From: Chiloscyllium plagiosum
Lineage: Eukaryota
Direction: 5' to 3'
Assembly: GCF_004010195.1 (NCBI RefSeq)
Contig: NC_057718.1
Coordinates: forward strand, 55,370,621 to 55,419,360
DNA length: 48,740 nucleotides
Both the position numbers and the translations under genes were made by a program. Under the pieces are notes generated by a model. It was not told the DNA's origin. It worked only from the letters and a program-made list of their open reading frames with translations, and made no database searches. Positions 7,243 through 39,661 of this stretch are shown here, in pieces. Within the stretch, counting starts at the first letter, position 1. Each line of letters starts with the position of its first letter.

Positions 7243-10200
7243 TTGTTCTGTTGTTCAGATTTGGTATTAAGGTTGCCTGGCTCGAAGGCAGTGAGTGCTA
7301 GGTGTTAGTGTCTTTTGTTCTGGGTGTTGATTTTGGTTGGTTTAAACCATGCTTGGGAAACTCTTTCAGTCACTAAGAGTTTTCTGGCAGTGGAAGAATG
7401 GGACTTTGGAGGTTTTACAAAATGTGATTAAAGTCAAGCTACTGGAATTAGCAGACAAGTTGGGGTTGGAGCTGCCTCCTCCCCATAATGAAAGGAGAGA
7501 TAATTACAAACATAACTCAGTATTTAAATTTGTTGGAAACGCCATCTGAATCTTTAGAGATGGCTAAAGTTCAATTGAAATGAAGTAGCTTGAGTTAGAG
7601 GCTAAAGACTAGGAAAGGGCCACAGAAATGAAACTCTTTGTTTGAATTACGATTAAAAGCAGGGGAAAGAGAAAAAAAATGAAAAACCCCAGCAGAATAA
7701 AAAGGAAAGGACTAAATCGCCTTAGCAGAACAAAAAGAAAAGAGAGCGCGAAGGGAGAGAAAAGCGGAGTGAGGGAAGGATGAAAGAGAGGGAGATTGAA
7801 CTTCAGGAAATGGTACTTAGACAGGAAAAGTCAGCTTAAAAGGATGTAGATGAAGGTGAAGATAAGCTTGGTAAGGAAGAGAGTGAGAGTGAACAAACTC
7901 ATGGTAGCCAAAGACCTGGTGAGAATCTATTTCAATATATTCAAGTATTGCCTAAATTTGATGGTAAGGATGTGGAAGCCTTTTTATCTCATTTGAAAAG
8001 GTGGCTAAACAAATGCAGTGGCCAGTGATTATGTGATCCAAACAAAACTTGTAGGTAGAGCGAGTGAGGTATTTGCATCACTATCAGAGGAGGTATCTGA
8101 GACCTATGAGGCGGTGAAGAAAGCTATCTTAAGTGCATATGAGCTCATGCCAGAAGCCAACAGACATTTCGGGAATCTAGGAAGGCACCCTGGTCAAACC
8201 TACATTGAGTTTGAAAGGATCAAACAAGGCAATTTTGCTAGGTGGATAAGGGCATTAAACATACAGTAAACCTATGACGCTCTTAGACAGATGGTAATTT
8301 TGAATGAGTTAAAAAATTCACTTCCTGAAGTAGAACTCGTGGAAGAGCAGAGAGTTAAAACGGCAAGATAACAGCTAAAATGGCTGATGACTATGAGTTG
8401 GTCCATAAATCAAAGATTGGCTTCCAACATCAATTTCAATCCATGAGGGATAGAAATTGGGGTAAAGAAAAATCCTCACATGGAAAGGGAAAGGTAGATC
8501 TCAGTGAAGATCATAAGGATAACTTACCACAGGGTAAAAAAGAAACCCTTGAAAGGGAAAGAGAAGTTTAAAAAGCTGTGGTGTTTTCACTGCAACAAAA
8601 TAGGCCACATGAAACCATAGTATTGGTAGGTTAGGAAAAGCACTGGGAAGCCAACTGTAGGAAAACAGAATAAGCCAGTGAATTTTGTTGAAGTGGTAAT
8701 GGAAAGCACAGTGGAGGCTAGAAAGTTTCACCGAAATGTATAACCTGGTCAGAGTTTGGTTCAGGAGGAAGTGCCAGATCTTCTTGAACCATATACCTGA
8801 GAAGGTAAAGTTTACTCATGTAGGTGAGTAGCAGCAGGTAAAGAGATTGCAATATGAAAAAAACCCAAGAACTCCTCAATCATTTTGATTTTGAAAGATG
8901 AGGAGATAAGTACCTTTTGAAGGACTATTGTCAGAAAAGGTGCAAGTACCAGGAATTCACAGTAAGACAAGAAGCACTCAATTATGTAAAGTGAAGTTAG
9001 AGTGGCCAATGAAGAATGGAGATGTCATGGTAGGAGTATTGGGCAAACTTTCAGCTCCAGGTATACAATTTGTCTTTGCTAACGATACAGCAGGTTCACA
9101 GGTAAGGTTGCTGCCTACAGTGGTTGAAAAGCCAGTAGAAACTCAGGCAATTGAACTACTGCAGCACACATATCTTTGGATTTTTCCCGACTGTGTGTTA
9201 TGAGGTCACAAAGTCCCCAGTTGAAACCGGAAAGAACAAACAGTACAGATAAGAAGGTTGAAGTGGAATTAATAGAGACCCTGTTTGATCAAATGGTTGA
9301 GACAAACCAGGAGCAGATACATGACAAAGCAGACATCTATAGCTCAGATAAATTAACTGAGTTACAGCAAAAAGATGAAAATTTAAACCAATTATATCAA
9401 AAGCCATGCACGGAAAAAGAATCTGAATGTATCCCTGAATGCTACTATCTTAGAAATGATGTCTTAATGAGGAAATGGAAACCATCACATATTCAGGCAG
9501 ATGAGAAATGGGCAGAAATTCATCAAGTCATATTGCCAGTGGGTTATAGAAAGGTGGTGTTGCAAGTGGGGCATGAACTACCAGTAGGGGGACAATTAGG
9601 GGTAAGAAAAGCAAGCTAAAATACAAAAGAAATACTGGCGTGGGCTGCGCAAGGATAAGATTGAATTTTGCCAGACAAGTCATACATGTCAAGTAATTGG
9701 AAAACCACAGGCAGTAGTAAAACCCACACCTTTAATACCTATTTCTGCATTTGAGGAACCTTTTACAATAATCTTAGGATTCAATCTTGTAAAGACCCTT
9801 ATCTAAAATAAAAAGTGGAAATCAGTATTTGATGGCATTAATGGATGTGCCTGCTAGATTTCCAGAGGCCATTCCATTATGCAGTATCACAGCTAAAAGG
9901 ATTGTAGAGGAGTTAGTCAATTTCTTTCACTAAATCTGGACTACCCACAGAGATACAATCAGATCAAGGGTCAAACTTTACATCGAAATTATTCAAGGAA
10001 GTTATGGACAGTTTACAATTAAAACAATTCAAACCTACTGCATACCATCCAGAATCACGGAGTGCTAGAAAGGTGGTATCAGACACGAAAGACCATGTTG
10101 ACGGCTTACAGTCAAGACTATCCAGATGATTGGGATAAAGGAATTCCGTTTGTACTTTTTGCCATCAAAGATGCACCCGATTAAATTGACCAAATTTATT

Positions 10201-12260
10201 CCATTTAAATTAGTTTTTGGGCTTGAAGTGAGAGGACCACTAAAATTGATTAAGGAGAAATTAGAATGTTAGAATTCGGAGACCACATATTTGGACCTTG
10301 GGTCAGATTTTAAGGAACAAATCAATGAAGCAAGGGTGTTGGCTCGTCAGCATTTAAAGATATCACGGTATATAATGAAACGGGAAGCAGACAAGAAATC
10401 AAAACCTCGCAATTTTACTATCAGGGATAAAGTGTTATTGTTACTTGCAGTCATAGGTGAACCTTTAAACCAAGGTTTAGTGGACCTTATCAAGTTGAAA
10501 GGAAATTGAGTGAGATGAAGTATTTGATAAGGACTCCAGACAGAAATAAATCTCAGTGTGTGTCATGTGAATATGCTCAAAAGGTATTTTGACAAGGAAG
10601 GAAAGCAAAGAAGATTGTATTATTGGTTACAATACTGATTGAAGAACCAAGTTATGAGGATTCTGAACTGGACATTTTCCAAATTAAATTGGCCAATGAG
10701 GGAATTGATCCAAATTTTTGCCAATCATTGAGTTACCTTCCTGAGGAATATCAAAATGACCTGAAAGAGTTATTACTATCACAGGGGGAGATATGTGGAA
10801 ATAATAGGTAAGTACTTCCCAGTTTATGCATGATGGAGATACAGGAGATGCTGTTCCGATGAAGCAACATTCTTATAGGCATAACCCTCTAAAGTTGGCA
10901 CAGCTTCAAAAGGAGATTGAAAGCTTGCTCCAAGACGACACAATCAAAGTGAGTTACAGTGATGGGAGCTCACCCTTAGTAATGGTGCCAAAACCAGGTG
11001 GTACCCAATGATTATGAGTAGACTGTTGCAAAGTCAATGTAGTTACAAAGACTGATGCATATCTATTTCCGTGTTTGGAAGAATGTATTGAAAAGGTGGG
11101 ACTAGCAACTTATGTTTCTAAGTTTGACTTGCTTAGAGGATACTGGCACATAACTTTGTCCTAAAGACTGAAGACAATTTTGGCTTTTGTAATGGGCTGT
11201 ATCAGTTTAAAGTCATGCTGTTTGGTATGAAAGATGCACCAGCCACATTTCAGAGTCTAACCAATAAGGTCATTGCCAGATCACCCAATTGTGTATTTTA
11301 TATTGATGACCTGGTGATTTTTAAAACCATATGGAAGGAACATTTGCAACATTTATCAGAATTGTTGGATTGAATTCAGGAGGTAGGCTTGGTGATAAAC
11401 CTGGCTAAAACTGAATTTACCACAGCCCAAGCCACCTTCCTACGCCATGTTATTGGACATGAACAAATGGCCCCACGGAATGAAAAAACAGAGTAATTGA
11501 GGAGTTTCAGTACCATTTGACAAAAAGAGCAATACTACTGTTGCTGGGATTGAGTGGATTTTATTGAAAATTCATACCAAATTTTAGCAATGTGGTGGCT
11601 CCACTCATTGAATTGCTAAAAAAAGGCAAGAAGTTTCAGTGGACAGCAGACTGTCAGAAGGCACTTAATAGCATGAAAGCTGTGTTAACCACTGCCCCAG
11701 TGCTAGCCACGCCTAACTACGCAAAGCCATTCAGAGTGGCTGTTGGTGCGAGTGATGTAGGTGTTTTACTAGGAAAACAATGAGAAGATAGAAAGACTGC
11801 TTGTGTATGTCTACAGGAAATTGAACATTCATCAGAAGTATTGGACAGTTGAGAAGGAAACTTTGAGTTTGGTGTTGGCATTACTACATTTCAATGTTTA
11901 TGTTGCCAGTAATGTATCTGAGACAATCATATACACTGATCATAACCTATTTTTGTGGAGAAATTTAAGGACAAAAATTCCAAACTGTTTAGATGGAGCT
12001 TGTTGTTGCAACCATTCATTTTTGAATATTGTGCATGTGACAGGATGAGAAAACATGATTGCTGACACATTGTTGAGACTTGAATGAGAAATGGAGGCAT
12101 TTGGTGGCAAGAGTAAAACAGACTGAAACAAAATGTAGTAGTGCATGTTTGCATGATTATTGTCAACATTATGCATATGAGTATTGTAGTATACTAACAA
12201 TTTAAGATTAAGGTGTTTTAAAATGAAGCCATCTTTTGATGTTGATGGTTCTTTTTTTTT

Positions 12261-13418: not shown

Positions 13419-14560
13419 AGTAAGGCGTTCGACAAGGTTATTCATGGTAGACTGGTTAACAAGGTTAGATCAATGGAATGCAGCGAGAATGAGCCATTTA
13501 GATATAGAACTAGCTAGAAGATAGAAAACAGAGGGTGGTGGTGGAGGGTTGCCTTTCAGACTGGAGGCCTGTGACCAGTGGTGTGCCACAAGGATCGGTG
13601 CTGGGTTTACTGCTTTTTGTCATCAATATAAATGATTTGGATGTGAGCGTAAGAGGTATAGTTAGTAAGTTTGCAGATGACACCAAACCTGGAGGTATAG
13701 TGGATAGCAAAGAAGGTTACCTTTAGAGTACAATGGAATCTTGATCAGATGGGGCAATGGGCTGAGGAGTTGCAGATGGAGTTCAATTTAGATATATGTG
13801 AGGTGCTGCATTTTGGAAAAGCAAATCAAAGCAGGACTTCTACACTTAATTGTAAGATCCTAGAGAGTGTTGCTGAACAAAGAGACCTTGGAGTGCAGGT
13901 TCAAAATTCCTTGAAGGTGGGGTTGCAGATAGATTGGATAACAAAGAAGGCGTTTGGTATGCTGTCCTTTATTGGTCAGAGCAGTGAGTACAGGATTAGG
14001 GAGGTCATGTTGCGGCTGTACAGGACATTGGTTGGGCCACTTTTGGAATGTCGTGCGTAATTCTGATCTCCCTCCTATTGAAAGGAGTTGCGAAACTTGC
14101 AAAGGTTCAGAAAAGATTTACAAGGATGTTGCCAAGGTTGGAGGATTTGAGCTATAGGGAGAGGCTGAATAGGCTGGAGCATCGGAGGCTGAAGGGAGAC
14201 CTTATAGAAGTTTATAAAATCATGAGGGGCATGGATAGGGTAAGTAGTCTAGGTGTTTTCCCTGGCATCAGGGAGTTCAGAGCTAGAGGGCATAGGTTTA
14301 GGGTGAGGGGAGAAAAATTTAAAAGGGACCTAAGGGGCAACTTTTTCATGCATAGGACGAGGAAGTGCCAGAGGAAGTGATGGAGGCTGGTCTGTTTACA
14401 ACATTTAAAAGGCATCTGGATGGGTACATGAATCGGAAAGGTTTAGAGGGATATGGGCCGCATGCTGGAAAATGGGACGAGATTTGTTTAGGATATCTGG
14501 TCGGCGTAGACAAGTTGGACCGAAGGGTCTGTTTCTGTGCTGTACATCTCTATGACTCTA
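13419..14560 (+). mobile_element. 5'-truncated CR1 LINE (HER1-type)
   Basis: [23 protein letters not shown] and RRLKGDLIEVYKIM motifs; tail ctctatgactcta. Confidence 0.92.
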
Positions 14561-16053: not shown

Positions 16054-16304
16054 GTAAATTCAACAGTGCAGTGAATGTCACTAAGATCTTGATGCTTGCT
16101 TTAATTATTATTCTAATTTTTGACCACTTGTTTCCAAGAATGATACCTGTATGTCAGAGGATTATGTTGTGAGGAGAAATTTGTATAATTTAGGCACGTT
16201 TTCTCTAAAGCTTAGAAGTTTAAGGGTGAAGTTCAAAGTTTGTGAGAAGATTTGTAGCTCGGGTGCTCGTTGTGGTTCGGTTTGCCGAGCTGGGAATTTG
16301 TGTT

Positions 16305-16344
16305 GCAGACATTTCGTCCCCTGTCTAGGTGACATCCTCAGTGC
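16305..16344 (-). ncRNA. minimal type-I hammerhead ribozyme motif (PLE pseudo-LTR)
   Basis: GCA-CUGAGGA-U-GUCACCU(AGAC)AGGGGAC-GAAA-UGUC-UGC; helix I is GCA/UGC. Confidence 0.75.
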
Positions 16345-17297
16345 TTGGGAGCCTCCTGTGAAGCGCTTCTGTGATCTTTCCTCCGGCATTTGTAATGGTT
16401 TGAATCTGCCACTTCCGGTTGTCAGTTCCAGCTGTCTGCTGCAGTGGTCGGTATATTGGGTTCAGGTCGATGTGCTTATTGATTTGAATCTGTGGATGAG
16501 TGCCATGCCTCTAGGAATTCCCTGGCTGTTCTCTGTTTGGCTTGTCCTATAATAGCAGTGTTGTCCCAGTCGAATTCATGTTACTTGACATCTGCGTGTG
16601 TGGCTACTAAGGATAGCTGGTCGTGTCGTTTCATGGCTAGTTGATGTTCATGGATGCGGATTGTTAGCTGTTTTCCTGTTTGTCCTATGTAGTGTTTTGT
16701 GCAGTCGTTGCATGGGATTTTGTATACTACATTGGTTTTGCTCATGCTGGGTATTGGGTATTGGGTCCTTTGTTCTGGTGAGTTATTGTCTGAGAGTGGC
16801 TGTTGGTTTGTGTGCTGTTATGAGTCCTAGTGGTTGCAGTAGTCTGGCTGTCAGTTCAGAAATGCTCTTGATGTATGGTAACGTGGCTGGTCCTTTGGGT
16901 TGTGGCATGTCCTCATTCTGTTGTCTTTGCCTTAGGCATCTGTTGATGAAATTGCGCGGGTATCCGTTTTTGGTGAATACATTGTATAGGTGTTCTTCTT
17001 CCTATTTTTGCAGTTCTGGTGTACTGCAGTGTGTTGTGGCCCTTTTGAATAGTGTCTTGATGCAACTTCTTTTCTGTGTGTTGGAGTGGTTGCTTTCGTA
17101 GTTTAGGACTTGGTCTGTGTGTGTGGCTTTCCTGTATACCTTTGTGGTGAATTCTCCGTTCGGTGTTCTCTGTACCATCATGTCTAGGAATGGGAGTTGG
17201 TTGGCCATTTCTTCCTCTCTAGTGAATCGGATTGCTGTGAGTGTGGTGTTGATGATCAAGTGTGTGTTCTCTATTTCTGTGTTTTTAATGATTACAA

Positions 17298-17337
17298 GCA
17301 CTGAGGATGTCACCTAGACAGGGGACGAAATGTCTAC
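17298..17337 (+). ncRNA. minimal hammerhead motif, inverted copy with a helix I mismatch
   Basis: GCA-CUGAGGA-U-GUCACCUAGACAGGGGAC-GAAA-UGUC-UAC. Confidence 0.65.
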
Positions 17338-17797
17338 AACACAAATTCCCAGTTTGGCGAACAGAACCACAATTAAGGGTGAAGTCACTAAGATATTAAC
17401 AGGAGAAACAGTGTAGATAAAGATAAACTAGTCCTACTGATTGGAGATTCTAATAAAAGGAATAATCTGAGAATTAGGACCAGATCATTCAGGAGAGATG
17501 TTAGAACAAAGAGATGTTAGATTAGTTGTCAATTTTAAATCTGAGACAGATGGTTTTTTGTTAAGCAAAGGTATTAAGGGATATTTTCCAAAGGCAGGTG
17601 TGGAGAAACAAGCTTGAGGGACTGAATGGCCTACTCTTGTTCCTGTGTTGAGCAAATATGAACATTCCCCTTGTTAAAGCAACCAAATTGAAATTGCCTA
17701 AATCTGCTTCCTTTCAATAGCTCCTTTAGCTTTTGGGAAATTATTAAGTCATGCAAGTGAGACAATCCATTTGACAGAATTCATTTTTATTCCCAAG

Positions 17798-23369: not shown

Positions 23370-23688
23370 AATGTTACATGCTCCTATTCTATCAAAGCTG
23401 AATATTATTTGATCGAGAGCAGGCTTTTCATAGTTCAAACAGGCAATTCTGATTTTTCAAAGCTCAATTTGCCAAAGCTCCTCTTCCTTGCTGTTATCAG
23501 GAAGGATGTAAGTTCATTTCATATATGCCAAGTGTAATTTTCTGGAACTTCCAATTAATTCTATCACAACTAAACTTGTGCATCACCCATTGAGTTTTGC
23601 AACAGAAATACGAAAATAATACAATTTGCATTATTCTTGTGTAATATCTAAAATAACTTATCTGCTATTTTGTTTCCTTCTGATATAG

Positions 23689-23806
23689 GTTTACAGAGAA
23701 AGGAAATCTAGAAGTATTGCTTTTCACTATTCAAAGCAAAATGAGAGCAAACAATCAGAAAGTATATATGCCAAGAGAAGGCAAACTCATCTCCGATATC
23801 AACAAG
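23689..23806 (+). CDS. SPTBN1: beta-II spectrin exon (spectrin repeat 1)
   Basis: tag|GTTTACA...AACAAG|gtaatt; [39 protein letters not shown]; 118 nt. Confidence 0.96.
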
Positions 23807-24452
23807 GTAATTACAAAAATTTCATTTTCTTCTGGAAGGAAATATATTTAACCTTGTCAGAAGCCTGTTGTAGTTTGTACAGGCAGCTACATCCTTGGAG
23901 TCGAACTAACATTTATTGCACCCTGGTTTCTGGGTTTTGCCCAAGACAAGAATTCAGCTGAGCACATAAGCTTCAAATCATTAGAGTAGAACTGCGCAAA
24001 GATAAGTAATTTAGCCATCAAGCCTGCATGGCTTTTTCAGAGAGCAATCTAATTCGTTCCACTTTCCACTCTTCTGATACATTTAAGCAATGTTCTCTCC
24101 TTCGCATGTTTATCGTAAGTCCTTTTGAAAACTGTTGTTGAATCTGAACGCTTCATGAAACACACAATGCGTTCCAGTCCCAATTGCTTGTTTGAAAAGT
24201 TTTTCATTATGTTGGTTCTGGTTCTTTTAGAAAATACCGGAAAGGTCTGTGTCCTTTCAGCCTTGGAATTAGATTTTCTTTAGCTTGCATAATTTTAAAC
24301 ACCTTTACCAAATCTCTTTTTGACACCACTGTTCTAAGAAAAACAAGTCCAGTATGTCCAGAGTATTTACCTAACTATTCCCTCATCTTTGGAAAAATTC
24401 CAGTAAATCACACTGCACCCTTTCCTAAACCTTCACATCCTCCCTCAAGTAT

Positions 24453-25245
24453 AAAATCACATGACTATAGTCCAACAAATTTATTTGAAACGGCAAGCTT
24501 TCAGAGCCCTGGCTCCTTCCTCAGGCAGCTAGTGAGAGAGAATGCATCGGACACAGAATTTATAAGTAAATGATCAAAGGGTCATACAACGCATGCGACA
24601 ATATTGAACAAACCTAGATGGCTATTAAGTCATTAATCCATTTGAATGGGGGTGCAGGCTTTGATTGAATGATATGTAAATCCCAGAATTTCTTTTAAGT
24701 CACTGCCCTAAGATAACTTCAAGTTTTGTCTGAATGAAGGTGACACCTCTGGTCAGACAATGAATGTTAGGTGTGAGGCCATGTTTCAAGTCTGTTTGTA
24801 TCTGTCAGACCTCCATTTTAATTGATTAAAGATTTAATAGCCATCTAGGTTTGTTTAGTACATTCACATAAGTTGAATGATCCTTTGACCTTTTACTTCG
24901 AATAAATCGGACACAGAATATGTCAGTACAAGATCAAAGGGTCATACAATTTATGCACCTTTATTCTGATAAAACCTGAGTTATCTTGGGCAGTGACTTT
25001 GAAGAAATTCTGAGATTTACATATTAATCAAAACCTGCACCCCATTCTAACAGATCAAAAACGTAATAGCCATCTAGGTTTGTCCATTACATTTGCATAA
25101 GTTATATGATCCTTTGATCTTTTACTTATTGTGTCCAATGCATTCTGTCTCACTAGCTGCCTGAGGAAAGCTTGTTGGACTATGACGTGGTGTTGTGTGA
25201 TTTTTGACTTTGTCCACCCAAGTCCAATACCGGCACGTCCACATC
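24453..25245. mobile_element. PLE-derived foldback element (~250-290 nt inverted arms with an inner inversion)
   Basis: 24453-24742 is the reverse complement of 24956-25204; hammerhead-like motif at 24493-24526 (-). Confidence 0.8.
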
Positions 25246-25456
25246 GTTCCTAAAATATAGCTGTTGAGAACTGAACTTAATACTACGGCGAGGACAGAAC
25301 TAGTGTTATCATAAACTTCTGGCTTTTTCACTCTATCCCTCAATTTATAAAGCCTAGGATTCCCATGATCTGCTTTCTTAAACTGTCACATTAGCTTTAA
25401 AAATTTGTGCATGAGCACCCGAGGTGCCCCTCTTCTGACACCATCTTTGAAATTGA

Positions 25457-25552
25457 ATCACGCAATCACCTGATGAAGGAGCGTTGCTCCGAAAGCTAGT
25501 GTGCTTCCAATTAAACCTTTTGGACTATAACCTGGTGTTGTGTGATTTTTAA
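25457..25552 (+). mobile_element. 96-nt PLE pseudo-LTR mini-insertion with TSD
   Basis: flanked by ctttgaaattga at 25445-25456 and 25553-25564; tail ttggactataacctggtgttgtgtgattttt shared with ~25175-25205. Confidence 0.85.
25467..25501 (+). ncRNA. minimal type-I hammerhead ribozyme with intact catalytic core
   Basis: CAC-CUGAUGA-A-GGAGC(GUU)GCUCC-GAAA-GCUA^GUG; helix I CAC/GUG, perfect 5-bp helix II, palindromic AGCU helix III. Confidence 0.85.
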
Positions 25553-26047
25553 CTTTGAAATTGAGCCATTTAACATGTATTGCCTCATCCCATTTTCAAA
25601 TGATATCCTGTGATGAGAAGTATCCAGTAAGGGCAAAATTTAGATGAACATAAGGAAAGATCAGGAATAGATGGTAAATAAATGGTTAATCCATGACCGG
25701 GGTGATACAGCATTGGAGAGTAGCATTTCTTCTAATATTTGTGATTTTTCTTTTCAAATAATGGCTCTGTTGTATTGTCATGTGTGTTGTCTCTCATCCC
25801 AGTGCATTTTGATTTCCCACCACTCCCTTAAGATGCTGTTAAAGCCGTGAGCTATCTCCGTGCAGAGGAGCCTCAATTATCCGAATGTCAATTATTCGAA
25901 TTTTGGAATTTCCTCACAAGATCGCAAGGTCCCAATGCTTGGCTAAACTGTGTTATCCGGCATTTGATTATCTAAACAAAATACTTCCTGCCCATGTCGA
26001 TCAGATAATTGAGGTTCCTTTGTACTATCAGATACTGGGTCTCAATG

Positions 26048-26510
26048 TCATAAGACATAGAAGCAGAAATAGGTCGTTTGGCTCATTGAGATTGCCCTGC
26101 CATTCAGTGAGATCATGGCTGATCTAATAATCCTCAACTTCACTTTCCTGTTTTTTATTCTCCAAACCCGAGACTCCTTTACTGATGAAAGATTTGTCTG
26201 TGTCAGCCATGAATATACAGCCCAACCTCCACAGTAACCATCTATAGTTAGGAATTCCACAGATTCACTATCCTCTGCAAGAAGAATTTCCTCCTCATCC
26301 CTATCTTAAATGGTCAACACCTTGCTCAGAGATCATGTCCCTGGTCCAAGATTCTCCCAAAAGGGGAATGAACCTCTCTGCATCTACCCTTTCAAATCCC
26401 CCGTGAATCCATTTGTTTCAGTAAAGTCACCTCACATTTTTCAAAGCTTCAATGAGTACAGATCCAACCTACTCAACCTCTCTTCATAAGCAAATTTCTC
26501 CATACTTGGG
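26048..26510 (-). mobile_element. CR1 LINE 3' end
   Basis: cataagacatagaagcagaaatagg tail; antisense RRKFFLQRIVNLWNS. Confidence 0.8.
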
Positions 26511-26739
26511 ACCTTTCTAATTTCTGGGGAAGGTATGACCTGTACAAGCCCGACAGTTGCACCAGAACCAGAACCAAGTCAATGTCCTTGATTCTCGGTT
26601 TGCTAGTGCTGTTACTGGGGGTTTCTGGCAGTGGTCTGAGATACGAGTGAAGTACAATAGGAGGTTATGCACAGAAAAATATAGAAGAAAAATCAAGTCA
26701 GTCTAGAAGACAGTGCAAATACAATCCAATTAAGGCTCA

Positions 26740-29700
26740 AGGATGGCATTTATTTTAATGCAAAGAGTCTTGCGAGTGAGGCAGATGAGTTGAGGGTGTT
26801 GACTAACAGACAGATATGTAGGCATATCTCACGTGTAAAATAAATAGGGTGATAATAGTAGGAGATTTAAACTTCCTCAATATTAACTTGAATAGACAAA
26901 GTGTGAAAGGCTTAGAGGAGGACAGAATTCTTAAAATGTGTTCAGGAGAGCTTCTTAAGCCAGCATTTAAGAGGAGGTGGTGGAAGTGGGTGTAATAGCA
27001 ATGTTTAAGAGGCATTTTGACAGATATATGAATAGGCAGGGAATAGTGGGATTTGGGCCTCTTGCTGAGATATTTGTATCATCGATAGTCACAGGTGAGG
27101 TGCCGGAAGACTGGAGGTTGGCAAACGTGCCACTGTTTAAGAAGGGCAGTAAAGACAAGCCAGGGAACTATAGACCAGTGCGCCTGACCTCAGTGGTGGG
27201 CAAGTTGTTGGAGGAAATCCTGAGGGACAGGATGGACATGTATTTGGAAAGACATGGACCGATTAGGGATAGTCAACATGGTTTTGTGCGTGGGAAATCA
27301 TGTCTCACAAACTTGATTGAGTTTTTTGAAGAAATAACAAAGAGGATTGATGAGGGCAGAGTGATAGGTGTGATCTATATGGACTTCAGTAAGGCGTTCG
27401 ACAAGGTTCCCCATGGGAGACTGATCAGCAAGGTTAGATCTCATGAAATACAGGGAGAACTAACCATTAGGATACAGAACTAGCTCAAAGGTAGAAGACA
27501 GAGGGTGGTGGTGGAGGGTTGTTTTTCAGACTGGAAACCTGTGATCAGTGGAGTGCCACAAGGATCGGTGCTGGGCCCTCTACTTTTTGTCATGAATATA
27601 AATGATTTGGATGCGAGCATAAGAGGTACAGTTAGTAGGTTTGCAGATGACACCAAAATTGGAGGTGTAGTGGACAGCGAAGAGGGTTACCTCAGATTAC
27701 AACAGGATCTGGACGAGATGGGCCAATGGGCTGAGAAGTGGCAGATGGAGTTTAATTCAGATAAATGCGAGGTGCTGCATTTTGGGAAAGCAAATCTTAG
27801 CAGGACTTATACACTTAATGGTTAAGGTCCTAGGGAGTGTTGCTGAACAAAAAGACCTTGGAGTGCAGGTTCATAACTCCTTGAAAGTGGAGTCGCAGGT
27901 AGATAGGATAGTGAAGAAGGCGTTTGGTATGCTTTCCTTTATTGGTTAGAGTATTGAGTACAGGAGTTTAGAGGTCCTGTTGCTGCTGTACAGGACATTG
28001 GTTAGGCCGCTGTTGGAATATTGCGTGCAATCCTGATCTTCCTATCGGAAAGATGTTGTGAAACTTGAAAGGGTTCAGAAAAGATTTACAAGGATGTTGC
28101 CAGGGTTGGAGGATTTCAACTACAGGGAGAAGAAGCTGAACAGGCAGGGGCTGTTTTCCCTGGAGCGTCGGAGGCTGAGGGGTGACCTTATAGAGCTTTA
28201 CAAAAGTATGAGGGGCATGGATAGGATATATAGGCAAAGTCTTTTCCCTGGGGTGGAGGAGTTCACAACGAGAGGGCATAGGTTTAGGGTGAGAGGGGAA
28301 AGATATAAAAGAGACCTAAGGGGCAACTTTTTCACGCAGAGGGTGGTACGTGTATGGAATAAGCTGCCAGAGGAAGTGGTGGAGGCTGGTACAATTGCAA
28401 CATTTAAGAGGCATTTGGGTGGGTATATGAATAGGAAGGGTTTGGAGGGATATGGGCCGGGTGCTGGCAGGTGGGACTAGATTGGGTTGGGATATCTAGT
28501 CGGCATGGACGGGTGGGACCGAAGGGTCTGTTTCCATGCTGTACATCTCTGTGACTCTATAACTGTATCGAGGCAAAAGTTTTTTAGTTTAGAAAGGCAT
28601 CATGTTTCAGTGTAGTTTTGGTGCGCTGAAGGGCCTGTTACAGTTTGTTACTGTTTTTTGTTCTTTAGCAAAAGAAAATCCTCCAAGAGAGCTGGACATA
28701 GGTTTGGAGAACAAAGCCGGGCAAGTGGTAAATGTGGTTGTGGGTTAAGAAATTAATTCTAGAAGTGTATTAGGGGAGAGTGAATAACCAGGGAAAGAGT
28801 AGTGTCCATCAGAGGCCAATGTGGCATCTGTATTTAGAAGAAGAAAACATAACTAAGGTTTTAACTGAGCACATTGTATCTATTATCATGGTAACAAAGG
28901 ACATTGTAGATATAGAAATCAGGGTTACAAACTGTGATGTACTTAAATGAGTTATCACTGAGAGCGCAAATTGTTAGCAATCTTAGTGGGCTGGAATGCA
29001 GTTAAATTCCCAAGCCCAGATGAGGTCTCTCCCAGGCTGCATGGGAGTTGAGGAATCAGATTTCAGGGCCTCTGCCATTCGTTTTCAAATCCTCTCTGAT
29101 CGTTGGAGTGGATACCAGTTGACCAGAGTACAGATAATATGGTGCCATATTCAAGAAGGATGTTAAAGTCACTGGCCTGTAGTTTCCTGGTTTATCCCTA
29201 ACAGCTGTGTAAGGAAGTTTTTGAAAAATGTTTTGAGGGACGGAATTATTCTCCACTTGGAGAGGAAAGAACTAATCAAGGATAGTCAGCCTGGCTTTGT
29301 AAGGGGGAAACGAAATCCAACAAATTTGAATGTTTTAAGGAGGTGACTTGGTGTGTTAATGAAGCTGGTGCAACTAATGTAGTTTATATGTACTTCATTA
29401 ATCCTTTTGACCAAGTTTTGCACGGCAGACTGATTGTGAAGCTAAGACCCCAAGGGACCCAGGGTAAACTAGATCCAAGATTGATCTGGTGGCAGGAAGC
29501 GGAGGCTGTTGGTTGAAGGTTGTTTTTGTGACTGGAAGCTTGTATCCATTGCCGCACCACAGGGTTCTGTGCTGGGTCCCTTGCATCTTGTAATGTACTT
29601 TAATGATCAAGACATAAAAATAAGAATTTAATTAGTAAGTTCACAGATGACACAAAAATCGGTAAAGTGCAAGGGGGAAAGTTTAGACTACAGGGCGATA

Positions 29701-30530
29701 TAGTTGGGTTGGGCAGAATAATGGCAAATTGCATTTAATCCTGAAAAATAAGAGGTGATGCATTTTGGAAGGACTAACAAGATGAGGGAGTACATGTTCA
29801 ATAGTACGACCAGAGGAAGTACAGAGGATCAGATGGACCTTGAGATGAATAACCATAGATCCTTAAAGGCAGGAGGATAGGTAGATAAGGTGGTTAAAAA
29901 GGCTTATGGGATATTTACCTTTATTCATCAAGGCATTGAACAGAAGAACAAGGTGGTTATGATGGGGACTTGTATATAACATCAGTTAGACAGCAGTTAG
30001 AGTACTGTGCAGTTCTGAAAAATGTGATTGCATTAGAGAAGGTACAGAAGAGAAACGGTATGTTGCATGGGCTGGACCAATTCAGCTATGATAGGTTGGG
30101 GTTATTTTTCTTGGAACAGGGAAGGCTGAGGGGGAATTCTAATTGAGGTATACAAAATTCAGATAGGCCTTGGCATGGTAGATAGGGAGAAAATTGTCCC
30201 ATAATAGAGGAGTTAATAACTGGGGGTGGGAACGTTGGGGGGTTGCAGTTTTAAGGTAAAGAACAGGAGATTAAGGATCGAGGGGGGAAAAAAAATGAAA
30301 ATTCATCCCGAGGTTGTGGATATCTGGAACTCTTTGCCTAAAGGTATTGTTGAGGCAGAAATCCTCAAGACAATTTAAGGACTGTTAAGCTGAACATTTG
30401 AAATGCCAAAGCATACAAGGGTAGGGGCCAAATGCTGGAAAATAGGACTAGAAAATATGGATGTATGCTGACTGGCATGGTCACAATGGATTGAAGGGCC
30501 TCTTTCCGTGATATGAAAGCTCTGATTCCA
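26740..30530 (+). mobile_element. old CR1 LINE (endonuclease to tail), interrupted at ~26971-28647
   Basis: IIVGDLNFLNIN at ~26852; KFPSPDEVSPRL; KDSQPGFVRG; KFTDDTK at ~29637; tail tgaagggcctctttccgtg. Confidence 0.75.
27055..28567 (+). mobile_element. young 5'-truncated HER1-type CR1 LINE
   Basis: near-intact [69 protein letters not shown]; a few stops and frameshifts. Confidence 0.95.
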
Positions 30531-31097
30531 CTAGTCCCAGGGTCACCCTCAATACTGAATAATTATGTCTGGTGCAATCTGGCTGAACATCCATGAACAG
30601 GAGTAGGCCATTCAGGATCTGAGTCATTCTGTCATTCAGTACCTCACCGTCATTTACCTACCGTATTGCTTGATAACCTGTTACCGAACATACCTCTGAA
30701 AATCGAAAATATGTTGACTCAACATCCATAATCTTTTCTAGGGAGAGTGTTCTTTATTTCTATTAAACATGGGTGCAAAAGTAATCTTTAATCTCTTTCA
30801 TAAAAGCCCTTCCTTACTCACTATGTGCAACCTCAGAAGATCTTCAACGAAAGAAGACTTGTGCGAAATGTTTCAATATGCATCACATTTTCCCTTTGCA
30901 GATTGATTAACTTGCCCAAGCCACCACCATCACCAAAACCCTGCCTTACTATAAAAAATGCCTACATTCCAGCTCAACCTAGTAGTGCATCTGCTGATCA
31001 AATATAAATATAGGATGACAGTTCTTGCTTTAACTGTAATGCTATGGTTTCTTATTTTTGATTGAAATAAGAGATATCAAAATAACACAATACATAT

Positions 31098-31881
31098 TAG
31101 AGTCATAGAGATGTACAGCACGGAAACAGACCCTTCGGTCCAACTCATCCATGCCGACCAGATATCCCAACCCAATCTAGTCCCATCTGCCAGCACCTGG
31201 CCAATATCCTTTCAAACCCTTCCTATTCATATACTCATTCAGATGCCTTTTAAATGTTGCAATTGTACCAGCCTCCACTACTTCCTCTGGCAGCTCATTC
31301 CATTCACGTACCACTCTCTGTGTGAAAAACTTGCCCCTTAGGTCTCTCTTATATATTTCGCCTCTCACCCTAAACCTATGCCCTCTAGTTCTGGACCACC
31401 CCACTCCAGTGAAGAGACTTTGTCTATTTATCCTATCCATGCCCCTTGTGATCTTATAAACCTCTATAAGGTCAGCCCTCAGCTTCCGACGCTCCAGAGA
31501 AAACAGCCCCAGTCTATTCAACCTTTCCCTGTAGCTGAAATCCTCCAACCCTGGCAACATCCTTGTAAATCTTTTCTGAACCCTTTCAAGTTTCACAACA
31601 TCCTTCTGAACGCAATGTTCCAACAGTGGCCTAACCAATGTTCTGTACAGCCGCAGCATGACCTCCCAAGTCCTGTACTCAATACTCTGACCAATGAAAG
31701 AATGTATACCAAATGTTGTCTTCACTATCGTATCTAACTGCGACTCTACTTTCAAGGAGCTATGAACCTGCACTCCAAGGTCTCTTTGTTCAACAACACT
31801 TACCATTAAGTGTATAAGTCCTGTTAAGATTTGCTTTCCCCAAAATGCAGCTTCTCGCATTTATCTAAATTAAGCTCCATT
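31098..31881 (-). mobile_element. young HER1-type CR1 3' fragment
   Basis: 227-aa antisense ORF nearly identical to the translation of ~27770-28480; tail tagagtcatagagatgtacagc. Confidence 0.93.
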
Positions 31882-32375
31882 TTACAAGAGTTGACAGCAA
31901 AGTTTTCATTTGTGCGTTTGAATTCCTTCATTAAGAATTTTACTTGAATGTTTTCACATCTTTTAAATTGCTTGGAGTCTGCAGTTGATTGTTATCCCAC
32001 AGAGGTCTGAAATTTTGGCCTTTTTTTCTCGACCCAAAAAGATTTCAAGATTCTTACGTTTTGCAGAGGACCATTAGTGTTTGCAAATTTTTATGGAGCT
32101 TTGGGGGCAATTTAACCATGTTTTGTCCTTCGTTTTGGGATCAGTTTATGAGCTTCTTATGGCACCTGTGTATTGCTGCTCAGTCTGTCTCCATATGACT
32201 GGATCACAAATAACAAAACTTTACTTGTATTTTTTTCCATCTTCAGCCACTTTCATCTCCTATAGGTAACCTTAATTTTGCCAGGAACATTAGCTATTAT
32301 TCATTTCATTTTTAATGCAGTTCAGTGAGTAATTAATTAATTAAAGGTTGACATTACTGAATACCAATCTTACAG

Positions 32376-32534: not shown

Positions 32535-34473
32535 GTGATGTTTTATCTGATTTCAATATACAGCAAAAATAATATAGTTTTAAATCAATTCATTTTATCA
32601 AGGTTTTAGAATGCTTTTATAACTCAGAATTTGAAACTACAGTATTAAATGAGTGAAGGTGAAGGCTGATGCTATCGTTCTTATTCATTTAATGTTTCAT
32701 AAACAGCTGGTTGGACTTGAGATAATCCAGGTACAAAGAGCTCACTTATTATATTAAAATAAAAATCATTATCTATGTTTAATAGAAGTCAAATACAACT
32801 GGTAATATATTATCATTGATAATGTTCAAGTCGGAATAAATACCACAATCAACGATCATAAAATAAACAATTTCAGGTGATTCTTGCAGCTCCAGAAGTC
32901 TTTTTGCTGTCCAAGTTCAGAACATAACACAAAACAACTTTTCCAGGTCATCTCTATATAAGCATCAGTTATATGGTGGTACACAAAAATAAGGAGACCT
33001 ATGATCATGGATTTATTTTTCAGTGCCTCTCTTCCAGAACTTATGCACTACTTTAAAGTCATCGGCAATCATTCCCTAATAACTATTGTCCACCTCAGAA
33101 ATTCCCTGTCACTGATCATGCATTCTAAGGGTTCTTGTGTGGCTGATGAGCCTGATCCTAGAAACATATCCCTGACCACACATTTGGTGGGTGTTTCTGG
33201 GAAGTGGAACTGGGCTCTGGCCTTAATTATGAGCATTCCTTTCTCTGGTTCCTTCTCCATACTTTCTTTTGTCGAAGGGTGTTCTCAAAGAATTGTATCC
33301 CTTCATATAGGAGATTCCTCCAAATCAGATTCTTCTGGACAGGAGTCTCCCATGCTTTGATATTTGTTACATTTCTTGAGGTTAGCCTTCAGAGACTGTT
33401 TGAAATGCTTCCCTGGTCATCTTTTCATTTGAGTGCCTTCCTTGAGCTAGGCAAAGAAGATTTGCCAAGGTAGTCAAAATTCAGGCATGCTCAGCATGTG
33501 GCTGATCCAATGGAAGTTGGTTTCAGATAATCATATTCTCATTGCTGGTGTTGTTGACTCCTTCAAGGGTGCTAATATAAAGAATCTGTCTCAAACCGCT
33601 TTGGTGGTACTTCTCCCAGGCCTTGAGGTGGCATCTATACATAGTTCCAAGTTTCAGAGTCATAAAGGCAGTTGCCTTAAAAACAAGGGTCTTGATATCT
33701 GTACAAATGTTTTGGTTGTCAAAGGGTCTCATCCGTAAAAATTCTAAGGTGGTGCTTGTGGATTGGACCTCCATGTCAAAATCAGCAGTAGATGAGAGGT
33801 GGCACCCCAGATAGGGAAAATGTTCCATGTTTGGAGGATTTTTCTGTTGATCTAAATGGTGGGATTGACCAGAACCTGCCCTGGTAAAGGACTTGAGTCG
33901 TCTTCAGATTGAGACTGAGGCCAGTTGTTTGGTATACTTCCGCAAAGATGATAGTGAGGCTTGAAGATTCTCTTCCACAAAAGTATAGATGACATTGTCA
34001 TTTGAATACTGAAGTTTCGCAAGCAAGGTTGGTGTTCTTTTTTCCTTTGGACTTCAACCTATTGAGGTAGAAAACCTTTCCGTCTCTCTTTTAGACAATG
34101 TCCAAACCACTGGAATGCTTATTCTTGACCAGATAAAGGATGGTGGCGATGAAGATGGAAAAAAGATTGGGGCAATAACAAATGTCTGCTTGACCTCAAA
34201 GGATTCTGTCATAATATTGTCAGAGAGGGCTGTCACCAACTTCTTGTTCTAGAAAAGATGGAGAATGTTGATGAATTTCTGTGGACACCATGGTCTTCCA
34301 TAACACTTCCCAATTGACTAACTCAAAAACCTTGATCAGATAAATGAAGGCCTTGTATATTTCCACAGTTCATATGGGCTGACTCCCTAACAGATTTCTT
34401 CAGAGAATGGAGAAGGTGCCCAGTGAGGATTCAGGAAATGATTTTCCCAGCGATGGAGAGTAGGCAGAACTCT

Positions 34474-35802
34474 ATGTATTGGCAGGAGAATCGACGTTTT
34501 GGGCATGAGCCCTTCTTCAGGAATGAGGAAAGTGTGCCAAGCAGGCTAAGATAAAAGGTAGGGAGGAGGGACTTGGGGGAAGGGTGTTGGAAATGCGATA
34601 GGTGGAAGGAGGTTAAGGTGAGGGTGATAAGGTGATGATAGGCCAGAGTNNNNNNNNNNNNNNNNNNNNNNNNNNNNNNNNNNNNNNNNNNNNNNNNNNN
34701 NNNNNNNNNNNNNNNNNNNNNNNNNNNNNNNNNNNNNNNNNNNNNNNNNNNNNNNNNNNNNNNNNNNNNNNNNNNNNNNNNNNNNNNNNNNNNNNNNNNN
34801 NNNNNNNNNNNNNNNNNNNNNNNNNNNNNNNNNNNNNNNNNNNNNNNNNNNNNNNNNNNNNNNNNNNNNNNNNNNNNNNNNNNNNNNNNNNNNNNNNNNN
34901 NNNNNNNNNNNNNNNNNNNNNNNNNNNNNNNNNNNNNNNNNNNNNNNNNNNNNNNNNNNNNNNNNNNNNNNNNNNNNNNNNNNNNNNNNNNNNNNNNNNN
35001 NNNNNNNNNNNNNNNNNNNNNNNNNNNNNNNNNNNNNNNNNNNNNNNNNNNNNNNNNNNNNNNNNNNNNNNNNNNNNNNNNNNNNNNNNNNNNNNNNNNN
35101 NNNNNNNNNNNNNNNNNNNNNNNNNNNNNNNNNNNNNNNNNNNNNNNNNNNNNNNNNNNNNNNNNNNNNNNNNNNNNNNNNNNNNNNNNNNNNNNNNNNN
35201 NNNNNNNNNNNNNNNNNNNNNNNNNNNNNNNNNNNNNNNNNNNNNNNNNNNNNNNNNNNNNNNNNNNNNNNNNNNNNNNNNNNNNNNNNNNNNNNNNNNN
35301 NNNNNNNNNNNNNNNNNNNNNNNNNNNNNNNNNNNNNNNNNNNNNNNNNNNNNNNNNNNNNNNNNNNTGGAGGAAGAGCGCCTCATCTTCCGCCTGGGAA
35401 TCCTCCAACCACAAGGGATGAACTCAGATTTCTCCAGTTTCCTCATTTACCCTCCCCCTACCTTGTCTCAGTCCCAACCCTCAAACTCAGCACCACCTTC
35501 CTAACCTGCAATCTTCTTCCTGACCTCTCCGCCCTCTCTCCCACTCCGGCCTATCGCCCTCACCTTATCACCTCACCTTAACCTCCTTCCACCTATCGCA
35601 TTTCCAACGCCCCTCCGCCAAGTCCCTCCTCCCTACCTTTTATCTTAGCCTGCTTGGCACACTTTCCTCATTCCTGCAGAAGGGCTCATGCCCGAAACGT
35701 TGATTCTCCTGCTCCTTAGATGCTGCCTGACCTGCTGCGCTTTTCCAGCAACACATTTTCAGCTCTGATCTCCAGCATCTGCAGTCCTCACTTTCTCCTC
35801 GA
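34474..35802 (+). mobile_element. Penelope-like element with inverted pseudo-LTR spanning the assembly gap
   Basis: EEERLIFRLGILQPQGMN GIY-YIG C-terminus after the gap; 34482-34649 inverted at 35543-35712; TSD agaactct at 34466-34473 and 35803-35810. Confidence 0.85.
34650..35367. other. assembly gap (718 N)
   Basis: run of n. Confidence 1.
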
Positions 35803-38831: not shown

Positions 38832-39661
38832 AAAATTGAAGGTGTAGTGGACAGCGAAGAAAGTTACCTCAGATGGGCCAATAGGCTGAGGAGTGGCAGA
38901 TGAAGTTTAATTGAGATAAATGTGAGGTGCTGCATTTTGGAAAGGCAAATCAGCAGGACTTATACACTTAATGGTAAGGTCCTGGTGAGTGTTGCTGAAC
39001 AGCGAGATCTTGCAGTGCAGGTTCGTAGTTCCTTGAAAGCAGAGTCACAGATAGATAGGATAATAGAAAATACGATAGGTATGCTTTCCTTTATAGGTCA
39101 GAGGATGGAGTGTAGGAGTTGGGAGGTCATGTTACAGCTGTGCAGGACATTAGGTAGGAATATTTTAGAATATTGTGCGCAATTCTGGTCTCTCTGCTAT
39201 TGGGAAACTTGAAAGGGTTCAGAAAAGATTTACAAGGCTATTGCTAGGATAGGAGGATTTGAGGTATAGGGAAAGGCTGATTACCTTGGGGCTGTTTTCC
39301 CTGGAGCATCAGAGGCTGAGGAGTGGTCTTATAGTATTTTATAAAATCTTGAAGGGCGTGGAAAGGGTAAATAAGCAAGGTCTTTTCCCTGAGTTTGGCG
39401 AGTCCACTGCCAGAGGACATAGAGGGGAAAGATTTAAAAATGACCTAAGGGACAATGCTTTTGTGCAGAGGGTGGTGCATGTATGGAAGAGCTGCCAGAG
39501 GAAGTGGAGGAGGCTGGTACAATTACAACATCTGGATGGGTATATGAATAAGAAAGTTTTAGAGGGATATAGGCCAACTGCTGGAATATCTGGTCAGCAT
39601 GGACAAGTTGGATCAAAGGATCTGTTTCCGTGCTGTACATCTCTATAATTCTATGACTCTA
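38832..39661 (+). mobile_element. HER1-type CR1 3' fragment
   Basis: CEVLHFG, QRDLAVQV, LEYCAQFWS and LGLFSLEHQRLR motifs; tail ctctataattctatgactcta. Confidence 0.9.

Follow-up and report, generated by a model that had tools for sequence, protein, structure and literature searches.

We consider it quite probable that the 96-nt insertion described here is a young, 5'-truncated copy of the terminal repeat of a Penelope-like element (PLE), a family with more than 12,000 matching copies, and that the minimal hammerhead ribozyme it has brought into an intron of SPTBN1 is a silent passenger. The silent-passenger case is built on predicted folds, genome counts and the literature, and it is made for a motif whose core is fully intact. 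Positions are those of the window, the whole 48,740-nt stretch of DNA that was analysed, and the features are collected in Table 1.

Table 1. Features of the insertion and its host intron in the window
Feature	Position	Strand	Basis
Host SPTBN1 intron (8,569 nt, GT..AG)	23807-32375	+	Exon mapping; follows the exon (23687-23806) coding approximately residues 355-394 of protein reference P0007
Target-site duplication, upstream copy, CTTTGAAATTGA	25445-25456	+	Direct repeat; empty site in related organism
5' junction, 6 nt foreign to the family's upstream region	25457-25462	+	Family match begins at 25463; pairing predicted
5'-truncated 3' end (pseudo-LTR fragment) of Penelope-like element	25463-25557	+	97-99% identity to best other copies
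Minimal type I hammerhead: 3-bp helix I, core, extra A, 5-bp helix II, AGCU palindrome	25467-25501	+	Sequence and descriptor; class as given in the available part of PMC4209133
Poly(A) signal hexamer ATTAAA (AATAAA in sister subfamily)	25510-25515	+	Sequence, family counts
Poly(A) addition site, per RNA reads of other family copies	25528-25530	+	Poly(A) as a loose end after 25530 in 39 reads
GU/U-rich downstream element	25534-25550	+	Sequence; predicted pairing partner of 25457-25470, which would leave helix I and C3 buried
Target-site duplication, downstream copy, CTTTGAAATTGA	25553-25564	+	Direct repeat; first 5 nt common to the element's end

Read on the plus strand, the motif begins with CAC (25467-69), CTGATGA (25470-76), an extra A (25477) and the helix II hairpin GGAGC-GTT-GCTCC (25478-90), and continues with GAAA (25491-94), GCTA (25495-98) and GTG (25499-501), with the predicted cut after 25498. 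The CUGANGA and GAAA core boxes and the N-U-H cut triplet of minimal hammerheads are all present, the extra nucleotide that separates position 9 from 10.1 is A25477, the G10.1-C11.1 pair is G25478-C25490, and helix III is replaced by the palindrome AGCT at 25494-97 (positions 15.2-16.2). The preliminary description had named this core, helix II, the 3-bp helix I, the AGCU palindrome and a flanking 12-nt direct repeat, all of which we locate where it placed them. A hammerhead descriptor (helix I of at least 3, helix II of at least 5) matches the window once and matches none of 40/40 locally shuffled windows, so the motif is not a product of chance. An Rfam scan of 24500-26500 gave no hammerhead match at E<=1, which is no evidence against the motif since the Rfam models do not cover the minimal form. 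A longer alternative hammerhead, with the downstream GTGTTGTG as helix I, was dropped on inspection, its position 17 being G. The host gene was likewise correctly named: the plus-strand coding sequence is 92% identical to SPTBN1 proteins, as against 71-72% for reptile/amphibian-type SPTBN2 entries, and exon mapping puts the motif 1.65 kb into the intron, sense to the gene.

That this is a genuine insertion flanked by a target-site duplication, as had been proposed, is borne out by a contig from a related organism that joins 25457 to 25566 and so has 108 nt fewer, the sum of a 96-nt insert and a 12-nt repeat. The flanks of this empty-site contig differ from the window at 26/594 nt, and a second study of the related organism is consistent with an empty site. 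With such an empty site in a related organism, the insertion must be both real and young. In a further sample of the window's own organism, contigs enter the insert by 20-28 nt from both flanks, where a firm bridge requires 31 nt. Family homology spans 25463-25557, so that CTTTG, the first 5 nt of the downstream repeat, is also the element's own end; since these 5 nt are common to both, 96+12 and 101+7 describe the same letters. The six foreign letters at the 5' junction look like a short piece of the element's 3' end in inverted orientation, from which they may have arisen. Of 95 columns compared with the most frequent letters in its subfamily (20 copies), the SPTBN1 copy departs in 3, one of them a near tie, and it is alone at its locus, with no tandem array around it.

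That so short an insertion is special finds no support. A genome scan for copy number had been proposed; a search of 3.56 Gb returned 12,186 exact matches to the 35-nt motif (6,164 + 6,022; reversed control 0), or one per 292 kb, at which density about 15% of windows of this size would contain one, and short inserts turn out to be the family's commonest product. Longer copies run upstream through a 3' UTR of approximately 590 nt into an ORF, in which copy L038 has a recognizable reverse transcriptase domain (Pfam RVT_1, E 6.6e-10). The linker between reverse transcriptase and endonuclease has the form CX4CxxC (CHGGRCKTC in copy L036, similar in L035, L038 and L083) and fits the CX2-5CxxC criterion for a zinc-finger linker, which marks Neptune or Nematis elements according to the available part of PMC8557442. 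The end of the ORF is GIY-YIG-like, with moderate support from Atlas matches of 0.97 in which GIY-YIG is found on 22-27% of members, and it has 32% identity to a GIY-YIG fragment elsewhere in the window; Pfam recognised no endonuclease in the family ORF and gave no GIY-YIG match. Judged from its sequence, the parent is an EN+ Penelope-like element, probably of Neptune/Nematis type. The hammerhead stretch stands behind the ORF in L038 and before it in L174, L179 and L180 (3/20 long copies, in partial tandem), and is thus a pseudo-LTR, since this partial tandem arrangement is what defines pseudo-LTRs. The ORF's ATG in these three copies follows directly on the tail, overlapping its last bases, about 93 nt past the cut site; all three are near full length, and their hammerhead, poly(A) site and tail all fall in the 5' leader of the downstream unit. 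Another copy, with a "1153-aa open frame", was dropped as a coding copy, the frame crossing assembly gaps.

A downstream anchor selects 17,059 copies, and we mapped the ends of the first 30 of these, all from one contig (loci L093-L122) and including both arms of some inverted insertions. Relative to the cut site, 3' ends lie at +54 to +68 in 13/30 copies and at +91 to +95 in 16/30, with one interrupted copy, while 5' ends lie at -25 to -43 in 18/30, at -3 to -18 in 5/30, at -56 or further in 7/30, and at the cut site itself in 0/30. The SPTBN1 copy, running from -36 to +58, has both of its ends in the main cluster. As a raw count, 16/30 copies are flanked by direct repeats of 9-13 nt, and an adjacent inverted segment was flagged in most of the 30; the 5' truncation and the two clusters of 3' ends match the pattern of EN+ Penelope-like elements, an optional tail of 30-40 nt included, in which two internal start points of reverse transcription explain a tail with two 3' ends (PMC11167929, in the part available). 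The SPTBN1 motif is in these respects an ordinary member of its family, likely a silent ribozyme motif on a retroelement stub. As an observation on its own, the 5'-end cluster 25-43 nt upstream of the cut site falls at the 5' arm of the hammerhead and could mark either an RNA start or a point of cDNA fold-back.

If the 96-nt unit were instead a mobile element of its own, a non-autonomous retrozyme or SINE spreading as ribozyme-processed RNA, then it would be expected that short inserts are the commonest form, as they are, and this would also accord with a proposal that non-LTR retrozymes derive from PLE terminal repeats (bioRxiv 2026.07.22.740005, seen in part). The 5' ends, however, are ragged (-3 to -358), longer copies continue into the 3' UTR and ORF of a coding element, the SPTBN1 copy lies outside any tandem array and its ends are off the cut site, and we regard this reading as extremely improbable. 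Under the preferred reading of a truncated terminal repeat, the element's endonuclease would have cut an AT-rich site, and the reverse transcriptase would have begun within the element's RNA, at the first of two start points on either side of a tail of 34-40 nt, perhaps aided by 5 nt of microhomology. Copying would then have halted after about 95 nt, just beyond the hammerhead, where most copies stop, and repair would have left the 12-nt duplication.

Whether the ribozyme would cut is another matter. Equilibrium folding gives helix I a probability of 0.000 and a competing stem one of 0.99 in 96-, 221- and 401-nt contexts. In this predicted stem of 13 bp, 25457-25470, including C3, pairs with 25534-25546, so that helix I would be buried, and forcing the hammerhead fold is predicted to cost 7 kcal/mol. 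The 6-nt 5' junction makes the stem stronger here than in most copies. We had considered the stem as a family-wide switch, a notion that holds only in part, with a median stem probability of 0.04-0.28 in 12 copies; the median probability of helix I across the same 12 copies is predicted to be <=0.15. In an RNA ending at 25530 the probability of helix I is about 0.67, and since the folding model is an equilibrium one, helix I could form briefly during transcription.

In the preliminary description, SPTBN1 pre-mRNA could be cleaved after 25498 if the hammerhead pairs with another copy of the family, to which may be added cutting with the help of the element's protein where the element is active. 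The core bases and the AGCU palindrome are all intact, thousands of copies exist and family RNA is made, and there is precedent for each route in the available parts of two papers: lone minimal hammerheads are uncut, and dimers and trimers from Schistosoma cut weakly (PMC4209133), while the hammerhead of a PLE in Anolis cuts only once the element's protein is added, with no RNA-seq ends seen at the site (PMC11167929). Dimer cleavage (Lunse et al.) is also summarised in PMC6765202 (seen in part). Against the dimer route, the two copies would be held together by only 4 bp, worth about -4.5 kcal/mol, and the minimum-energy fold of a two-copy dimer is predicted to pair the helix II arms instead. 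A partner is also lacking nearby: of the 8 minimal hammerheads in 118.7 kb of the SPTBN1 locus, which extends beyond that stretch, 3 are sense and 5 antisense, they come from about four families, and none is a second intact sense copy of AGCU type. The other two sense hammerheads have the palindrome ACGT and cannot, therefore, pair with AGCU, and further sense fragments of the same family in the locus are broken. The hammerheads of the locus vary in the sequence of helix II, and their palindromes are of AGCT or ACGT type. Against the protein route, the insert does not include the region where the ORF starts; in Anolis, the RNA to which the protein has to bind lies there (PMC11167929, in part).

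The genome offers a further line of evidence. Were cut RNA to serve as the template, copies beginning at the cut site would be expected, and among 17,059 copies foreign bases occupy both positions before it in 87, compared with 70 at a control two bases upstream (p 0.20); on inspection, the true breaks were 13/30 and 9/12. With no excess of copies starting there, it can be argued that the RNA that was copied was mostly uncut. The geometry of the RNA reads described below, in a library for which cut products would be too short for capture, suggests as well that polyadenylated family RNAs often span the cut site uncut. With helix I predicted not to form in the intron context and no intact sense partner in the 118.7 kb, the cleavage of SPTBN1 pre-mRNA once proposed appears unlikely at this motif on the modelled folds, and, weighing all of the above, cutting by either route strikes us as very unlikely. 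Having no helix III of its own, a 3-bp helix I that is predicted to lose to a 13-bp stem, and no partner copy at hand, the motif would be transcribed as part of the pre-mRNA and the intron then spliced out uncut. Action in trans is conceivable in principle, given the thousands of intronic copies elsewhere.

The description of the insertion as little more than the ribozyme plus a short tail holds for its length, but the tail is not inert, since it contains both ATTAAA and a GU-rich element. The hexamer is followed, 13-15 nt further on, by the addition site known from RNA of other copies, and the GU-rich element begins 4 nt beyond that. In a poly(A) single-cell run from the same organism (a 3'-end library; one run, one sample, about 2% read, of a kind that cannot show 5'-OH ends), 39 reads have poly(A) behind 25530, while 29 (7+10+12) among the reads listed run on past it. 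No genomic copy has an A run at the addition site (0 matches), so these tails are untemplated. Two forms of the hexamer have been amplified, ATTAAA with 17,059 copies and AATAAA with 7,122, whereas C or G at the variable position totals 356, the anchors used for these counts being slightly different. The hexamer, the GU-rich element and the untemplated tails together argue for a functional poly(A) site in the terminal repeat of this family. In the literature searched, in which subscription papers are incompletely covered, we met no poly(A) site in PLE pseudo-LTRs, and novelty is thus not established.

If such a site also worked in SPTBN1, the insertion would act as an intronic poly(A) site at which some transcripts end, at 25528-30, yielding a short RNA with coding sequence for the actin-binding domains and the first part of the spectrin repeats. 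The orientation of the insert, sense to SPTBN1, its signals at the spacing given above and the family-level evidence just given would speak for it. The reads, though, carry the alleles of other copies (66/70 at 25519 and 42/47 at 25485), all 112 match the SPTBN1 copy only partly, and 0 cover its unique flanks, from which it follows that they derive from copies elsewhere; the neighbouring exon has a depth under 1. Within the SPTBN1 copy the GU-rich element is predicted to be paired (unpaired probability <=0.09 over 25534-46), and the insert is without the element's upstream sequence. Poly(A) sites in introns are subject to suppression by U1 snRNP, and the 5' splice site lies 1.7 kb upstream. 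Premature termination within SPTBN1 therefore seems unlikely to us.

A bolder, combined reading, which we rate as unlikely, would treat the terminal repeat as similar to the R-U5 of retroviruses, with the RNA starting just upstream of the hammerhead, poly(A) added 30-32 nt behind it and reverse transcription starting in the tail. The inserts of 95-135 nt would then be products like strong-stop DNA that failed to jump to the RNA 3' end, and they would have seeded tens of thousands of working intronic poly(A) sites, one of them cutting short some SPTBN1 transcripts behind the part for the actin-binding domains. A single strand would be contested by helix I and the GU-rich element, coupling the two signals.

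In terms of the preferred reading, a truncated terminal repeat with a probably silent motif, the ribozyme is one more copy of a class described in 2014. The yield is at the level of the family: a cut-site count without excess, 5' ends that cluster shortly upstream of the hammerhead, and RNA reads that speak for a poly(A) site in the terminal repeat. If these results hold, they bear on the way in which Penelope-like elements are copied from an internal start point, and intronic polyadenylation, not self-cleavage, would be the route by which the insertions touch host genes. Only two leads, the poly(A) site and the clustering of 5' ends, seem to us worth following.

The window contains other repeats. 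An older inverted pair of a related subfamily lies just upstream of the insertion, at 24473-24760 on the minus strand and 24956-25245 on the plus strand; the antisense arm keeps AATAAA and a hammerhead (24524, minus) whose second helix I pair is G-C in place of A-U, while deletions have removed both helix II and the hexamer from the sense arm, a single case, and another sense fragment, upstream of the window, keeps AATAAA. A second Penelope-like family is represented at 16270-17372 by reverse transcriptase and GIY-YIG fragments on the minus strand (Pfam GIY-YIG E 0.014, below the cut-off), together with hammerhead-like motifs at 16341 (minus) and 17301 (plus) in both of which the helix III palindrome is broken. 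Related LINE reverse transcriptase fragments, which we take to be CR1-like, are found at 13419-14560, 27388-28559, 31098-31880 and 38832-39661, a decayed pol region like that of LTR retroelements at 8000-12050, and repeat fragments at 34430-35800 around a 718-nt assembly gap.

Among known systems, seen here through the available parts of the papers cited, the amniote intronic hammerheads of RECK, CTCL and DTNB (PMC6155905) are likewise of type I and on the sense strand of an intron, but they are canonical and held at one locus across species, whereas the SPTBN1 copy is minimal, of high copy number and absent from its relative's site. A domesticated intronic hammerhead was rejected given the empty site in the related organism, the absence of helix III and the absence of an Rfam match at E<=1. 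The non-LTR retrozymes (Cervera and de la Pena 2020, PMC7229834) share with our insertion a short non-coding repeat with a type I hammerhead, but they consist of tandem units of about 300 nt that give circular RNAs, in contrast to the lone truncated end of a coding element seen here; a retrozyme was set aside with a single copy at the locus and a family that is the end of a coding element.

PAc, a Poseidon element of Anolis carolinensis (Frangieh et al. 2024, PMC11167929), is closer, with a hammerhead near the junction of pseudo-LTR and ORF, two genomic 3' ends that bound a tail, and an AT-rich target. As in the RNA-seq data on PAc, read ends do not pile up at the cut site here (25498/25499), although the poly(A) library used could not have shown such ends. 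The ORF starts inside the hammerhead in PAc but at the end of the tail, about 93 nt past the cut site, in our family, and the zinc-finger linker of Neptune and Nematis, present here, is absent from Poseidon (PMC8557442, in part). The closest likeness is to the minimal hammerheads of metazoan PLE pseudo-LTRs (Cervera and De la Pena 2014, PMC4209133), with which the motif shares type I topology, an intact core, an extra base after A9, the G10.1-C11.1 pair, the palindrome at 15.2-16.2, a very short helix I (likewise of 3 bp in coelacanth, according to the supplement) and thousands of lone copies from truncated elements. The family's own sequence has 0 matches in the searchable text of that supplement. 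Its copy number (12,186 exact) is higher than that of the examples given there (approximately 4,000 in coelacanth and 9,000 in Xenopus), and the available part of that paper describes nothing like the poly(A) site that follows the cut site by 30-32 nt in this family. The class that had been proposed stands, with the core, the palindrome and the pseudo-LTR position all matching, and by every sequence feature tested the motif is the minimal hammerhead of a Penelope-like pseudo-LTR.
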